From NCBI GenBank assembly GCA_963735595.1, contig CAVTLK010000001.1:256001-320000 (forward strand): a stretch of DNA of 64,000 nucleotides, in the 5' to 3' direction. Made by a program: the position numbers and the translations under genes. Shown in pieces: positions 15,915 through 21,361 of this stretch. The number at the start of each line of letters is the position of its first letter. Within the stretch, counting starts at the first letter, position 1. Source of the DNA: an uncultured delta proteobacterium. Lineage in GTDB: Bacteria > Desulfobacterota > Zymogenia > Zymogenales > Zymogenaceae. The notes below the pieces were generated by a model. It made no database searches. It worked only from the letters and a program-made list of their open reading frames with translations, and was not told the origin of the DNA.

Positions 15915-16107
15915 CCCGACCTCCTTATAAAGAATCGTTCGTTTGACTATCGTCGTTCGATTGAATACGGTTTTATTATGAGCTATCGCTATTATACCGG
16001 GAACGAGGCTATCCATCAAGGCAAAATAAACGATAACTATTGACAACAGGCGGATTGATTGGGTACTATAAACCAACATGAAACGAATACTCGGGTTGAA
16101 CATCTAA

Positions 16108-16704
16108 ATGATAGACTATAAAATAGTGTCCGATGATTCTCTCGTGGCGCAGGCTCAGAAAAAGGATTATCAGGCCTTTGAAGAGCTCGTGAAGCGCTAT
16201 GAGGGTAAGATATATGGCCATACGTTGAGGATGGTTGGAAATCGAGAAGACGCGCAGGACGTATTGCAGGAGACGTTTCTTAACGTATTTAAGAGTTTAG
16301 AGAATTTTCGCGGTGATTCTTCGTTTTCAACATGGATTTACAGGATTGCGACAAACAATGCGCTGATGCGTTTGAGGAAGCTCTCCCATGCTGAACGCGA
16401 ATTAAACGATGAGCTCCCGCCTCCCGAATCGATGAAACGGCAAGCCCTGGCAAGCCATATACTTGATCCGAAGGATGCATTCCTCGAAAAAGAGATGCTG
16501 CGGGAGTTGGACAAGGCCGTGGAACGGCTGCCGGAAAAATACCGAACGATCTTCCTTCTCCGGGACGTGGAGGAGTTTTCCACCGAGAGGACGGCTACTG
16601 TCCTCGGCATTTCGGAGGCGGCTGTAAAATCCCGTCTTCATCGGGCTCGGCTTTTTATCCGGGAGGCACTGCTTAGGAAATTTGAGGGGAAGACGGAGTC
16701 GTAA
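16108..16704 (+). CDS. ECF RNA polymerase sigma-70 factor
   Basis: DAQDVLQETFL, FSTWIYRIATN (region 2); LPEKYRTIFLLRD...AVKSRLHRAR (region 4). Confidence 0.95.
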   Translation: MIDYKIVSDDSLVAQAQKKDYQAFEELVKRYEGKIYGHTLRMVGNREDAQDVLQETFLNVFKSLENFRGDSSFSTWIYRIATNNALMRLRKLSHAERELNDELPPPESMKRQALASHILDPKDAFLEKEMLRELDKAVERLPEKYRTIFLLRDVEEFSTERTATVLGISEAAVKSRLHRARLFIREALLRKFEGKTES

Positions 16705-16706
16705 AC

Positions 16707-16967
16707 ATGAACGAACATCACGAGTGCAAGGACTGCAAGAAGATATTCGAGAAGCTGTCGGAATACATCGATAAAGAGCTTAATGAAGAAGAATGCCTTG
16801 TATTCGAGGAGCATATCAGGAATTGTAAACCCTGCCTCGATTTTCTCGAAAGCCTTCACTGTACCATCAATCTCTGCAGGCGGCTTGACAATCAAGAGTC
16901 GTACCGAATACCCCGTGACGTGAGCGTCCAACTGCACGAGTTCCTTAAGAAAGAATGCAAACTGTAA
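16707..16967 (+). CDS. Soluble zinc-binding anti-sigma factor (zf-HC2/ZAS)
   Basis: C...LSEYIDKEL...HIRNCKPC (HxxxCxxC); Cys-rich; no TM segment; directly after the ECF sigma. Confidence 0.92.
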   Translation: MNEHHECKDCKKIFEKLSEYIDKELNEEECLVFEEHIRNCKPCLDFLESLHCTINLCRRLDNQESYRIPRDVSVQLHEFLKKECKL

Positions 16968-17015
16968 CAGATCGAATGGAATCATGGTTGCCCTGTAGGA
17001 AACGGCGGCTGTAAT

Positions 17016-17228
17016 ATGAAACAATATATAAAAATAGCGGCGGGGACGGTACTGGGCTTCATCAGCGGGTGGATCCTCGGATTGGTGGTCCAATACGCCG
17101 GTTCCACGTGAACGGTATTTTGCCATCCGGCGGTTCCGGCCGTATTAGGCGGGATCATCGGGTTGGCCCTGGCCCTGGGAGGGCCGGAAGGCGGGAAATC
17201 GGGAAAAGGGATGCGAGGTGATACATAG
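17016..17228 (+). CDS. Unannotated 70-aa two-TM protein with in-frame UGA (candidate selenoprotein, DUF6132-like)
   Basis: MKQYIKIAAGTVLGFISGWILGLVVQYAGST-U(TGA 17109-17111)-TVFCHPAVPAVLGGIIGLALALGGPEGGKSGKGMRGDT*; its TAG overlaps the trxB GTG; SECIS-like hairpin at 17112-17143. Confidence 0.72.
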
Positions 17229-18181
17229 TGAATATACCGGAATATGATCTGGTCATCATTGGTGCCGGTCCCGCCGGTCTAACGGCTGCGCTCTATGGGG
17301 GAAGGGGTGGATTGAAAACCCTTGTTCTCGAGCGGATGTCGGCAGGTGGACACGCGGCGATGACCGATGCCATTGAAAACTACCCCGGATTCCCCGAAGG
17401 GATATCCGGAACGGCGCTCGCCGAATCCATGGAGAAACAGACCAGGAAATTCGGCGCCTCCTTCAAGACGATTACCGAAGTGACTAAACTCGACCGTGCC
17501 GATGAGCTGTTCACGGTTACGGCCGGCGATGAGATGTTTACCGGTAAGGCCGTTATCGTCGCCTCCGGGGCCGATCCAACGAAGCTCGGCGTACCGCGGG
17601 AGGATGAGCTTATCGGCAAGGGGGTGAGCTATTGCGCCGTTTGTGACGGAGCATTTTTCAAGGGGGCGCAGGTAGCCGTTATCGGCGGAGGCAATTCCGC
17701 GTTGGAAGAGGCGATCTATTTAACGCGATATGCGAAACGGGTATACCTGATTCACCGCCGGGACAGGTTCAGAGCCGATAAGATACTTACCGATCGCGCG
17801 CTCTCTCACCCCTCGATCGAAGTTGTCATGGAGACCGTCGTCGAAGAGATAATTGGAGACCGGGCGGTGTCGGCGGTTAAGCTTAAAAACGTAAAGACAT
17901 CACAGACCAAGACCCTGGCGATCGAGGGGATATTCATATACGCCGGGTACCGGCCGAACACGGAGTATCTCACGGGTGTTGTTGATCTGGACGAGGTCGG
18001 GTGCATTGTCACCGACGCTGAAATGGCCACAGGTGTCCCGGGTCTTTTTGCGGCCGGGGACGTGAGGTCAAAGGGTCTCAGGCAGGTGGTCACGGCGGCG
18101 GGTGACGGCGCGACGGCGGCCTACTCGGCGGAAAAATATATCGAAGCCATGGAAAACCGTCAGTATGGGGAATTCAAGTGA
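17228..18181 (+). CDS. trxB: Thioredoxin-disulfide reductase
   Basis: IIGAGPAGLTAA, IENYPGF, GVSYCAVCDG, GGGNSA, HRRD, AAGDVR. Confidence 0.97.
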   Translation: MNIPEYDLVIIGAGPAGLTAALYGGRGGLKTLVLERMSAGGHAAMTDAIENYPGFPEGISGTALAESMEKQTRKFGASFKTITEVTKLDRADELFTVTAGDEMFTGKAVIVASGADPTKLGVPREDELIGKGVSYCAVCDGAFFKGAQVAVIGGGNSALEEAIYLTRYAKRVYLIHRRDRFRADKILTDRALSHPSIEVVMETVVEEIIGDRAVSAVKLKNVKTSQTKTLAIEGIFIYAGYRPNTEYLTGVVDLDEVGCIVTDAEMATGVPGLFAAGDVRSKGLRQVVTAAGDGATAAYSAEKYIEAMENRQYGEFK

Positions 18182-18243: not shown

Positions 18244-18456
18244 ATGCCTATCTATGAATATCGCTGCGCCAGATGCGCGAAGGAGTTCGAGGTACTGCAA
18301 AAACCGACCGACGGGCCGGAGGGCGTTGTCTGTCCATCCTGTGGTAACCCAAAGGCGGAAAAGATTCTTTCGTCGTGTTGCGCCCCGTCATCCCATAAGT
18401 CGGAGGGGGTGTCCGGGACTTCATCCTGCTCGACACGTAAGTTTGGCTGACGGTAA
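18244..18456 (+). CDS. FmdB-family zinc-ribbon protein, candidate C-terminal selenocysteine (...CSTRKFG-U-R*)
   Basis: MPIYEYRCxxC...FE...CPSCG motif; TGA 18448-18450 followed by CGG TAA and a SECIS-like hairpin. Ends at 18450 if UGA is a stop. Confidence 0.8.
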
Positions 18457-18607: not shown

Positions 18608-19945
18608 TTGAAAGAGAGAAAGATCGCGGTTATCGGAATGGGATACGTCGGGATTCCCTGCGCGGCGCTTCTGGCCGATGTGCCGGGACATAACGTCATC
18701 GGGCTGGAGAAAGGATCAGACAGAAGTGCCTGGAAAATCGATACCCTCAATGCCGGCCTCTCGCCGATAGAGGGCGATGAACCGGGTTTGGCAGAGCTTC
18801 TGGGACGTGTCGTCGGGAAGGGATCGTTTCGCGCCACGGGAGACTACGCGGCGTTATCGGATCGTGACACGATCCTCATCTGTGTCCAAACGCCCACCGA
18901 GGGCGATAATCATCGGCCCAGATACCTTGCGCTCAAAGATGCCGCAAAAGGAATCGGCGATAATTTGAAGACGGGGGCCCTTGTTATTACCGAGTCGACC
19001 CTTGCGCCCGGAACAACGGAGCACGTCATCAAACCGATCATCGAGCGTGCCTCCGGTCTCAAAGCGGGCAAAGATTTCTCCCTTGCGTATTCCTACGAGC
19101 GCCTGATGCCGGGCCGCCTTATCCGTTATATCCAGGAGCTACCCCGCATCGTCGGGGGTATTGACACGGAAAGCGAACGCAGGGCGCGCGAGCTCTACGC
19201 TACGATAGTGAAGGCCCCCGTCCATACCACCGATGTCATGACGGCGGAGGCGACCAAGACCATCGAAAACGCCTACCGGGACGTGAACATAGCGTTTTCC
19301 AACGAAATGGCACTCGTATGCGAGAGCCTCGGTATTAACGTATATGAGGTGCAACGGCTCATCAATACGCGATCCGAGCGGATGATGCACTATCCGGGAG
19401 CGGGCGTCGGCGGACACTGTCTTCCAAAGGATACGTGGCTTCTGCTCCATGGACTATCCATGTATGGTAAGCATGAAGTAAAGACCCACTTTGTTGAACT
19501 GGCACGCTCAATTAACGAATCGATGCCCGTTCACGTCTTTAGGCTCCTCGAGGATGCCTTAAGGCAAAAGGGAAGAGAATTCCCCGATGTCAAAGTAGCG
19601 CTTTTAGGCGTCGCGTATCTCGAGAACTCCGATGATACGAGGAACACCCCGGCATACGCTTTGATCGACCGGCTGGCCGCGTACGGGGCCGATATTATAG
19701 CGCACGATCCGTACGTGACCATATTCCCGGAGGCGCGGCTGACCCATGATCTTGACGAGGCCATACGGGATGCCGATGCCCTCGTGATTATGACCAAGCA
19801 TTCGCAGTACGATTCCATGAGCCTGGCAGATGCGGCAAAGGCCATGCGCACTCGCATAATCATCGACGGGAGAGACACGTTTGACCCTGATGATGCGCTG
19901 TCCGCGGGATTTTTCTATCGGGCTATAGGCAAAGGCACCGCCTAA
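18608..19945 (+). CDS. Nucleotide-sugar dehydrogenase (UDP-ManNAc/UDP-GlcNAc dehydrogenase family), copy 1
   Basis: IGMGYVG Rossmann motif, ESTLAPGTT, KTIENAYRDVNIAF, catalytic GVGGHCLPKD. Confidence 0.92.
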   Translation: MKERKIAVIGMGYVGIPCAALLADVPGHNVIGLEKGSDRSAWKIDTLNAGLSPIEGDEPGLAELLGRVVGKGSFRATGDYAALSDRDTILICVQTPTEGDNHRPRYLALKDAAKGIGDNLKTGALVITESTLAPGTTEHVIKPIIERASGLKAGKDFSLAYSYERLMPGRLIRYIQELPRIVGGIDTESERRARELYATIVKAPVHTTDVMTAEATKTIENAYRDVNIAFSNEMALVCESLGINVYEVQRLINTRSERMMHYPGAGVGGHCLPKDTWLLLHGLSMYGKHEVKTHFVELARSINESMPVHVFRLLEDALRQKGREFPDVKVALLGVAYLENSDDTRNTPAYALIDRLAAYGADIIAHDPYVTIFPEARLTHDLDEAIRDADALVIMTKHSQYDSMSLADAAKAMRTRIIIDGRDTFDPDDALSAGFFYRAIGKGTA

Positions 19946-20026: not shown

Positions 20027-21361
20027 GTGAAGAAAAAGATTGCCGTTGTTGGAATGGGGTATGTGGGAATACCGTGTGCCGCGTTGCTGGCCGACGTCGA
20101 GGGGTTTGACGTTACCGGTATACAGCGGAGATCACAGCGAAGCGGGTGGAAGATCGATGCCCTCAACTCGGGAAAATCACCGATAGAAGGGGACGAGCCG
20201 GGACTCGATGAGCTTCTGACGCGGGTGGTCGGAAAAGGGAGTTTCCGGGTTACCGACGATTTCTCTGTAATCAAACAAATGGACGTTGTCCTTATTGACG
20301 TACAAACCCCTACGGACGGCGCGGGACATGAGCCCCAGTATCTTTCTTTGAAAGAGGTTGCCAGGGAGATCGGGACATACATGAAGCAGGGTGTACTTGT
20401 CATAACCGAATCGACCGTTGCCCCGGGAACCACCGAACACGTAATCTGCCCGATTCTCGAGAGAAAATCGGGATTGCAGGCGGGCAAAGACTTCTCCCTG
20501 GCATATTCCTATGAGCGGGTTATGCCGGGAAAACTGATAGAATATATCGTGAATTTGCCCCGGATCGTCGGCGGTATCGATCCACAAAGCGAGAACAGTG
20601 CGCGGGAACTCTATGCCACGATAGTGAAAGCAAAGATCCACACCACCGACGTCCTGACGGCCGAGACAACCAAGACCATTGAAAACGCCTACCGGGACGT
20701 GAATATAGCGTTTTCCAACGAGATGGCCCTCGTATGCGAGAGCCTCGGAATAAACGTATACGAGGTTCAGCAGCTCATTAATACGCGATCCGAACGGATG
20801 ATGCACTATCCTGGCGCGGGGGTGGGCGGACACTGCCTTCCCAAGGATACGTGGCTTCTTCTCTACGGACTCAATACGTACGGCTCAAAGAAGGTCCAAA
20901 CGCATTTTGTGGAGCTCGCCCGGAGTATCAATGAATCAATGCCGAATCATCTGGTAAATCTCCTCTCCGAATGCCTGAAATCGCGCGGAAAAAGTTTCCC
21001 CGACTCAAAGGTAGTAGTCTTGGGTGTTGCGTACCTGGAAAACTCGGATGACACGCGTAATACGCCTGCCTATGATGTGGTGGCGCGTCTAATGGCCCAC
21101 GGAGCCGAAGTCATTGCACACGATCCGTACGTACGCGAATTCCCTCAGGTTGAGCTCACCAGGGACCTCATAGCGGCGGCCCAAGACGCCGATGCCCTCG
21201 TCATAGTTACAAAGCACAAGGAGTACTATACGATGGACTTGGGAGCCCTCAAAAAGGTAATGCGGGATCATATAATCATTGACGGCAGAGACGTGATAAA
21301 TCGGGCGTCGGCGCGCGCGGCGGGGTTCCTTTATCGAGGTATCGGAAAGGGTGGCGAATAG
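20027..21361 (+). CDS. Nucleotide-sugar dehydrogenase (UDP-ManNAc/UDP-GlcNAc dehydrogenase family), copy 2
   Basis: Same motifs as copy 1; tandem paralog. Confidence 0.92.
   Translation: MKKKIAVVGMGYVGIPCAALLADVEGFDVTGIQRRSQRSGWKIDALNSGKSPIEGDEPGLDELLTRVVGKGSFRVTDDFSVIKQMDVVLIDVQTPTDGAGHEPQYLSLKEVAREIGTYMKQGVLVITESTVAPGTTEHVICPILERKSGLQAGKDFSLAYSYERVMPGKLIEYIVNLPRIVGGIDPQSENSARELYATIVKAKIHTTDVLTAETTKTIENAYRDVNIAFSNEMALVCESLGINVYEVQQLINTRSERMMHYPGAGVGGHCLPKDTWLLLYGLNTYGSKKVQTHFVELARSINESMPNHLVNLLSECLKSRGKSFPDSKVVVLGVAYLENSDDTRNTPAYDVVARLMAHGAEVIAHDPYVREFPQVELTRDLIAAAQDADALVIVTKHKEYYTMDLGALKKVMRDHIIIDGRDVINRASARAAGFLYRGIGKGGE

Follow-up and report, generated by a model that had tools for sequence, protein, structure and literature searches.

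Bacterial selenoprotein catalogues consist mostly of soluble enzymes with a thioredoxin fold and rely on gene calls that end at UGA. The catalogue of 2022 comprises 87 selenoprotein families (PMC9312934), and that of 2026 comprises 119 (PMC13188914). The Pfam family DUF6132 (PF19628) consists of small two-helix proteins in a cysteine (Cys) form, which either stand alone or are fused to thioredoxin; it is a family without an assigned function and thus offers no mechanism. In actinomycetes, SigR and RsrA govern a thiol-stress regulon that controls trxBA. Here, we describe a short gene on the forward strand at positions 17016–17228 of a 64,000-nucleotide stretch of DNA (the window) from an uncultured delta proteobacterium of the family Zymogenaceae (contig CAVTLK010000001.1), in which an in-frame UGA is predicted to encode selenocysteine (Sec). 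We consider this to be a genuine, unannotated selenoprotein gene, with a probability of roughly 0.9.

Within 17016–17228, a single reading frame extends from an ATG to a TAG (17226–17228) and contains exactly one internal stop, the TGA at 17109–17111. When the UGA is read through, the product is MKQYIKIAAGTVLGFISGWILGLVVQYAGST-U-TVFCHPAVPAVLGGIIGLALALGGPEGGKSGKGMRGDT, in which a basic N-terminus (MKQYIK) is followed by a hydrophobic helix, the loop QYAGST-U-TVFCHP, a glycine-rich hydrophobic helix, and a charged tail; under genetic code table 11, the open reading frame (ORF) ends after 31 amino acids. The gene lies in the 260-bp gap between the end of the anti-sigma ORF (16967) and the GTG start of trxB (17228), and its TAG and this GTG have base 17228 in common (TAGTG). 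The frame, its lone TGA, and the overlap with trxB had been proposed in a first-pass annotation, together with the two transmembrane (TM) segments and the loop between them. Every one of those coordinates was right, and we obtained the same translation.

A six-frame search reading through stops found matches with a TGA inside in G003, G001, G002, G006, G033, G020, and G045, and the TGA occupied one and the same place in eight genomes, within G-[ST]-U-x3-C-[HNS]-P. When 401 genomes of the phylum were searched with a profile built from those eight, 53 had a match at E ≤ 0.01. Each of the 51 matches with E ≤ 2.4e-4 contained an in-frame TGA; the six weakest matches lacked it and lay within long unrelated frames. 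Fifty loci were retrieved, giving 49 gene models after the omission of one locus (L072) with a second TGA near its start, and in these 49 homologues the TGA stood at exactly the same column. The genes show two architectures, U-x3-C-[NHS]-P (type A, 37 genes, including that of the window) and C-x4-U ... [AS]-[SN]-P-W (type B, 12 genes), which share the aligned column of the Sec.

In addition, 185,579 species, each represented by one genome, were scanned with a degenerate DNA motif for the C-N-P-Y subtype. The motif matched 89 stretches, and 79 of the 80 retrieved were family members as judged by hidden Markov model, with the TGA at the column. Such recurrence of one TGA column in both samples greatly exceeds what chance would produce. 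Since the scan sees only the C-N-P-Y subtype, these counts underestimate the size of the family. By record title, the loci belonged to Syntrophaceae, Deltaproteobacteria, Thermodesulfobacteriota, Zixibacteria, Armatimonadota (Chthonomonadales), Ignavibacteriales, Poribacteria, GN15, and others; the records listed were all marked as metagenome-assembled genomes.

Two further features of individual loci were observed. The omitted L072 (G060:C30:6273-10422) is of type B, and its close relative L066 has Arg at the position of the extra TGA; L072 may be a pseudogene, have a later start, or contain a second Sec. In the type-A loci L054-L058, L061, L069, and L051/L086, the gene has a terminal TGA, beyond which the frame goes on with a short tail that includes Cys (such as G-TGA-S-A-C, G-TGA-G-S-P-C, and V-TGA-G-C). 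This terminal TGA might be a second Sec codon or a plain stop.

The 37 type-A genes align without gaps 3' of the UGA, where the column entropies at codon positions 1, 2, and 3 were 1.07, 0.60, and 1.47, respectively. Over the 21 codons behind the UGA in these 37 sequences, no in-frame stop was found, as compared with 88 and 7 stops in the other two frames. The entropy by codon position and the absence of in-frame stops indicate that the region behind the UGA is protein-coding sequence, as the first-pass annotation had anticipated. A second public run yielded a 2259-nt contig that spans the whole 801-nt stretch with 95.5% identity (36 of 800 positions differ); none of the sequencing runs contained more than 0.29 of the sampled words. 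In this independent contig, the bases at 17109–17111 are again TGA, and not TGC or TGG. Eight of its 12 differences in the sense codons of the small gene are at third codon positions, and the lone difference in the hairpin behind the UGA, at 17147, is in the apical loop. A T-to-G change at 17226 (GAG) places the stop at a TGA at 17229–17231, which gives an overlap with the GTG of 4 nt (GTGA).

For the protein databases, a word-indexed search with the window protein gave no match, and an exhaustive profile search, covering 1.84 billion representative proteins, was needed. This search recovered 95 relatives at E ≤ 1e-3, in which the residue at the Sec column was mostly Cys. Four relatives have W at the column, which, judging from the protein sequences, we take to be a TGA called as Trp by the gene caller. 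Two relatives are fragments cut at the TGA, namely P0012, a 31-residue N-terminal piece of which one copy sits in NCBI without a name, and P0066, a C-terminal piece. The loops of the Cys forms read C-x3-C, C-P-L-T-C, or the classic K-C-x-x-G-x-C-P-L-T-S-N-P. In an alignment of 65 sequences, the U/C32 column and G49 alone were invariant, and G14, G18, P38, and G45 were nearly so. Homologues aligned to the position by TGA and homologues aligned to it by Cys, both of which had been predicted, were thus found.

Many of the Cys relatives score above the Pfam cut-off for DUF6132 of 23.2 bits (best, 72.6 bits), and 39 of the 65 aligned sequences match the family at E ≤ 0.1. The window protein obtained 12.1 bits (E = 0.15), short of the gathering threshold, and the Sec-form relative L036, scored singly, obtained 15.7 bits. 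Residues 4–56 of the window protein align to positions 5–57 of the 60 positions of the DUF6132 profile, that is, end to end. This full-length alignment, the loop motif, and the intermediates above the cut-off indicate that the window protein is a divergent relative of DUF6132, and not a formal member. The first-pass annotation had placed the UGA where DUF6132 proteins have Cys; the Cys column and loops of the form G-T-C-P-L-T-S-N-P agree with that placement, but the window protein falls under the Pfam cut-off.

To assess RNA structure, 66-nt regions of the 49 genes were compared with 100 synonymous recodings per locus, sampled according to the codon usage of that locus. For the window gene, the 66 nt from the UGA gave -29.0 kcal/mol, as compared with -18.9 kcal/mol for the recodings (z = -3.16). 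Over the 49 genes, the mean z was -1.81 for the 66 nt from the UGA, with 25 genes below -2, and -0.42 for the 66 nt ending at the UGA, with 3 genes below -2. In the hairpin predicted at 17122–17167 of the window, the five pairs checked had probabilities of 0.94–0.997. In the 37 type-A sequences, with the structure taken from one of the aligned sequences, 69.9% of the cells were paired, as compared with 63.3 ± 1.0% after shuffling (reached in 0 of 500) and 33–45% with the partners slid, and the covariation score was 0.262, as compared with 0.179 and 0.08–0.14, respectively. As an example of a compensated change, 5' AAC to AGY is accompanied by 3' UUG to CUG.

According to the rule for bacterial selenocysteine insertion sequences (bSECIS), the apical loop lies 16–37 nt from the UGA and has a G in its first two positions (PMC13188914). 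The window hairpin has both properties, and it may be bound by SelB. RNAalifold on the 37 type-A sequences returned only a 3-bp consensus, with stems that shift register among subgroups, and Rfam over 16950–17300 gave nothing beyond two matches at chance level (E = 3.8 and 7.8). For most of the type-B genes, a compact hairpin with its loop 16–20 nt after the UGA was obtained, several with a GGUC loop; the GGUCU loop of mopB2 in the genome of the window (G000) resembles these. The first-pass annotation had also placed a hairpin behind the UGA, built on ACGG/CCGT and CCGG/CCGG pairs. A stable hairpin is present and the bases are those that it gave, but its fold (17112–17143) is not the favoured one, having a free energy of -7.2 kcal/mol, an ensemble probability of about 0, and a loop 19 nt after the UGA, and being preserved solely in the close relative G003. 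The geometry of the SECIS-like hairpin of mopB2 is resembled by the small loop of this alternative fold, which may be the form bound by SelB. From energy and covariation, the hairpin at 17122–17167 is the best supported SECIS candidate.

G000 contains selB (347 bits with its C-terminal part; near C2:265670), one tRNA-Sec (C2:688975-689072), selA, and selD. A TGA is found at the U-x-x-K site of selD and in the A-R-[IL]-U-H-S motif of two molybdopterin-enzyme genes. TGA closes 890 of the 2213 stop-to-stop frames of at least 300 codons and is the commonest stop. Because TGA is thus the normal, main stop of G000, this genome has no genome-wide recoding of TGA. The small gene combines an in-frame UGA in a conserved frame and Cys homologues with a genome in which selA, selB, selD, and tRNA-Sec are present. 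The conserved TGA column, the coding sequence past it, the Cys relatives, and the Sec machinery of the genome indicate that the UGA at 17109–17111 is almost certainly read as Sec, as predicted from the sequence. As a separate observation, G000 has two selD-like genes (C3:6046-6975 and C3:24832-25476), one with the in-frame TGA at U-x-x-K and the other without it.

If the UGA were an ordinary stop, the product would be a single-helix peptide of 31 residues, and the frame behind the UGA would represent a remnant or a separate element, or the gene would be a pseudogene. The 31-residue fragment given by gene callers (P0012, with one cluster member from NCBI) and the rank of TGA as the commonest stop of G000 are in line with this, and the read-through itself is predicted. 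We nevertheless regard an ordinary stop as highly improbable, since the TGA and the frame behind it are kept in 49 + 79 loci of several phyla with coding-type substitutions and no stops, the Cys-form relatives are full length, and no start codon with a Shine-Dalgarno sequence lies directly behind the TGA to open a second ORF; for a pseudogene, one identical lesion would not persist across phyla. Insertion of Trp, Cys, or Gly by a near-cognate or suppressor tRNA, in place of SelB and Sec-tRNA, would explain the W of four relatives, if this is not the gene-caller artefact that we take it to be, and the loop bound by SelB may be that of either hairpin. This form of read-through is equally hard to sustain in a genome that has the full Sec machinery, known selenoprotein genes with TGA at catalytic sites, and TGA as its main stop, which excludes genome-wide recoding. 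Moreover, the aligned residue of the relatives is Cys, the standard counterpart of Sec, and a selected hairpin sits 3' of the UGA. Table 1 lists the gene, its predicted Sec codon, the two hairpins, and the surrounding features.

Table 1. Features of the window around the predicted selenoprotein gene
Feature	Position	Strand	Remarks
Promoter-like site, sigma-70 type (putative)	16040..16069	+	TTGACA-18-TACTAT; consensus scan; upstream of ECF sigma gene
ECF-type sigma-70 gene (ECF, extracytoplasmic function)	16108..16704	+	Pfam Sigma70_r2 + r4_2; TIGR02937 113.5 bits (cut-off 42.9)
Soluble zf-HC2 (ZAS) anti-sigma gene	16707..16967	+	zf-HC2 43.3 bits; H-x3-C-x2-C = HIRNCKPC
Predicted selenoprotein gene, 70 codons	17016..17228	+	TM1 about residues 7-25; loop 26-38 (U32-x3-C36-H-P); TM2 39-54; charged tail
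UGA predicted as selenocysteine	17109..17111	+	TGA column in 49 + 79 homologous loci; Cys in database relatives
Alternative hairpin of the first-pass annotation	17112..17143	+	ACGG 17112-15, CCGG 17127-30, cggtt 17131-35, CCGG 17136-39, CCGT 17140-43
SECIS-like hairpin, 18 bp with bulges	17122..17167	+	Minimum free energy -29.0 kcal/mol; loop GUAUUA 17142-17147, 30 nt after UGA
Shine-Dalgarno sequence GAGGTGAT for trxB	17215..17222	+	Within last codons of small gene, 5 nt before GTG
trxB, thioredoxin-disulfide reductase	17228..18181	+	GTG start; TIGR01292 396.8 bits (cut-off 343.45)
FmdB-family CxxC zinc-ribbon gene, Cys form	18244..18450	+	Zn_ribbon_8 61.1 bits; TIGR02605 58.1 bits

In all ten genomes examined from the window's taxonomic family, an anti-sigma gene is followed by trxB. 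The small gene lies between the two in five of the ten (G000-G003 and G006, the last confirmed with Pfam), and a short spacer without it is found in the other five (G004, G005, and G007-G009). As it is present in five of these genomes and missing from five, the small gene is an accessory insertion into a conserved sigma/anti-sigma/trxB module. In the five insertion-carrying genomes, the region upstream of the sigma gene contains TTGACA and the TA(C/G)TAT box without variation. These five genomes also have ATTATA ... CATCAAG elements in common within 15950–16108, upstream of the sigma gene, which may be operator sites. Inspection by eye of the 48-nt spacer that precedes the small gene did not reveal a conserved internal promoter, and G003 alone shares this spacer. 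Among the NCBIfam models, RsrA (TIGR03988) gave the anti-sigma protein its highest score, 29.1 bits, below the cut-off of 62.5 bits; from this RsrA-like factor, we infer that the operon would be induced under thiol stress.

For the genes downstream of trxB, FmdB belongs to a family with Sec forms in the 2022 and 2026 catalogues, and the window copy is a Cys form. It is followed, at 18608–19945 and 20027–21361, by tandem paralogous ORFs of about 445 residues, both of which begin MK(E/K)(R/K)KIAV(I/V)GMGYVGIPCAALLADV and presumably encode nucleotide-sugar dehydrogenases.

The neighbourhood of the family was sampled 1.5 kb to either side of the gene at 115 non-redundant loci. An FmdB-type zinc ribbon was found in 41 loci, downstream on the same strand, and a GalT-like enzyme in 18, also downstream. 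Upstream, DUF302 was found in 20 loci, a transporter of the major facilitator superfamily in 13, and thioredoxin, on the same strand, in 15. An OsmC-like protein occurred in 24 loci, lying upstream and on the same strand in 22 of them; a CopD/cytochrome-b5 protein occurred in 14 loci and trxB in 6. Thirteen of the thioredoxin neighbours have about 110-124 residues and no signal peptide, and two, from Armatimonadota, have a hydrophobic N-terminus. In addition, at least five of the Cys-form relatives (P0019, P0035, P0044, P0060, and P0081) are fused at the C-terminus to thioredoxin. AlphaFold2 predicted helices at residues 2-28 and 39-55. The mean numbers of K and R were 1.58 in the N-tail, 0.63 in the loop, and 0.91 in the C-tail, and this positive-inside count suggests that both ends of the protein are cytoplasmic and the loop is at the outer face.

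On the basis of the thioredoxin fusions, the thioredoxin, TrxB, and OsmC neighbours, and the Sec/Cys pair, we suggest that the protein would carry out thiol-selenol redox chemistry served by thioredoxin. In the proposed mechanism, the UGA would be decoded as Sec with the help of the hairpin directly downstream, the U32-x3-C36 pair in the inter-helix loop would form a reversible selenylsulfide, and this selenylsulfide would be reduced by thioredoxin/TrxB. We think that this sequence of insertion and chemistry is probably correct, and a thioredoxin-linked redox role at the membrane has chances slightly better than even. A bolder version would make the DUF6132 selenoproteins in general a "mini-DsbD", a minimal two-helix selenylsulfide relay carrying thioredoxin/TrxB electrons to the outer face or to oxidised lipids or quinones; in the lineage of the window, Sec-dependent translation ahead of trxB would also let the thiol-stress operon sense selenium supply. 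We consider this a long shot, and electron transfer across the membrane by the window protein is pure speculation by analogy.

Small two-TM proteins with paired Cys are typically metal handlers, and the gene might encode a real selenoprotein that uses its U-x3-C loop to bind a soft metal or metalloid (Hg, Cu, As, or Se/Te species) or to move it across the membrane, in the manner of MerF, MerE, or MerT. The CopD/cytochrome-b5 and DUF302 neighbours (14 and 20 loci, respectively) are consistent with such a role, as are the outer-face loop given by the positive-inside count and the selenoprotein forms of MerT and of metal-binding proteins in the 2026 catalogue (PMC13188914). On the other side, neither Pfam nor NCBIfam assigned the window protein (E ≤ 1) or the 65 members (E ≤ 0.1) to MerT, MerF, or a metal family. 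The genes that recur beside the family do not include a metal-responsive regulator or a P-type ATPase; what recurs, as neighbours and in fusions, is thioredoxin, TrxB, and OsmC, and the window operon is headed by an anti-sigma factor of the thiol-sensing ZAS type. These results make a metal-handling role rather unlikely and favour thioredoxin-linked redox chemistry.

A further proposal of the first-pass annotation concerned regulation, namely that the efficiency of Sec insertion sets the translation of trxB according to selenium supply, through the stop/start overlap. The TAGTG overlap is present in G000 and G003, the contig of the related strain has the 4-nt overlap created by GAG at 17226, and the Shine-Dalgarno sequence of trxB lies inside the small gene, where the passage of ribosomes could unfold local structure. 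However, trxB has a strong Shine-Dalgarno sequence of its own (GAGGTGAT, 5 nt upstream of the GTG), and similar motifs precede trxB in the four relatives G001, G002, G003, and G006. The stop and start overlap in just two of the five genomes, the gaps in G001, G002, and G006 being 14, 16, and 38 nt, respectively; the five same-family genomes without the small gene have the sigma/anti-sigma/trxB module all the same, and 109 of the 115 loci have no trxB nearby. Because trxB has its own Shine-Dalgarno sequence and the overlap occurs in two of five genomes, selenium tuning of trxB, which is possible and for which the evidence is proximity, looks weak, and we judge it unlikely.

Several observations weigh against the reading of the gene as a thioredoxin-linked membrane selenoprotein. 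For the decoding, no selenium incorporation, transcript, or peptide has been seen for the small gene, the contigs from RNA runs covering just the anti-sigma gene and conserved parts of trxB. The co-occurrence of the family with selA across the phylum is a test without power, as 371 of the 401 genomes have selA, and two genomes with U forms (G153 and G197, 99% and 91% complete, respectively) gave no selA match at E ≤ 1e-30. Family-wide, just 27 of the 49 minimum-free-energy hairpins conform to the bSECIS rule, RNAalifold on all 49 genes gave no single consensus across both architectures, and the covariation test is favoured by having its structure drawn from one aligned sequence. For the protein, the helical hairpin predicted by AlphaFold2 has low confidence (mean pLDDT, 59.7), and the score against DUF6132 is below the Pfam cut-off. 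For the function, an outward loop, as given by the positive-inside count, would lie apart from cytoplasmic thioredoxin and TrxB, on the opposite side of the membrane, which is awkward for direct reduction. Finally, trxB adjoins the small gene in only 6 of the 115 loci, and we know of no redox role for the commonest neighbours, FmdB (41 loci), DUF302 (20), and the GalT-like enzyme (18).

The family represents a new selenoprotein family, and its recoding is of an ordinary kind. The table of the 2022 catalogue (PMC9312934) and the family table of the 2026 catalogue (PMC13188914) contain neither DUF6132 nor any two-helix protein with U-x3-C. The main text of the deep-Sep paper (PMC12013277) does not mention the family, nor does the main text of the BSepDB paper (PMC13326102), in which the terms "membrane" and "DUF" do not occur. 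No NCBIfam model (June 2026) matches the window protein at E ≤ 1 or any of the 65 members at E ≤ 0.1, and among the papers searched for DUF6132 by name, none was relevant. Its proteins are tiny and embedded in the membrane and, as judged by record titles, occur widely among uncultured anaerobes; annotation renders them as fragments of about 30 residues or not at all. Recognition of the family would enlarge the selenoproteome by one family and allow at least about 130 loci to be annotated correctly, and DUF6132 would gain a catalytic residue and a likely partner in thioredoxin. The presumably ZAS-controlled trxB operon would provide a concrete setting for a membrane Sec/Cys pair under thiol or oxygen stress.

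One of the closest known systems is DUF6132. It and the window family are of the same length class with two glycine-zipper helices, both have a loop in which the invariant Cys, or its counterpart, is followed by x-x-x-[CSA]-[NSH]-P, and Cys intermediates above the DUF6132 cut-off are recovered by the Sec-form profile. The window family differs in having Sec in place of the invariant Cys, and its partner Cys is four residues after the U (U-x3-C) rather than five before (C-x4-C), a spacing for which Sec forms (C-x4-U) exist too. By motif, the nearest entry of the 2026 table (PMC13188914) is TsoA (LULAXC, NF045695), and the name of its motif points to a U-x3-C spacing as well; NF045695 is unmatched by the window protein (E ≤ 1) and by the 65 members (E ≤ 0.1).

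The catalogued redox selenoproteins (thioredoxin, glutaredoxin, peroxiredoxin-like, DsbA-like, and AhpD-like; PMC9312934, PMC13188914) likewise have a UGA at the Cys of their homologues with a second Cys nearby, a hairpin that lies behind the UGA but still within the coding sequence, a genomic link to the thioredoxin system, and hosts with anaerobic Desulfobacterota-type genomes that are rich in selenoproteins. In contrast to these proteins, the window family is a membrane hairpin of about 50-70 residues that is not soluble and lacks the thioredoxin fold, and its spacing is U-x3-C, not UxxC or CxxU.

For the regulatory setting, the window resembles the SigR-RsrA system: a small zf-HC2 anti-sigma gene, encoding a soluble protein with H-x3-C-x2-C, stands behind an ECF sigma gene and is tied to trxB, and of the NCBIfam models RsrA matches the anti-sigma protein best. 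It differs in that this match (29.1 bits) is below the RsrA cut-off (62.5 bits) and in that trxB is within the same operon, behind a conserved, putative sigma-70-type promoter. For the membrane chemistry, a parallel is DsbD/CcdA, in which redox-active Cys lie beside Pro in or near membrane helices and thioredoxin is the cytoplasmic partner. The window protein has no sequence match to DsbD/CcdA, and it would place a single redox pair between two helices, as compared with the six to eight helices of those proteins.

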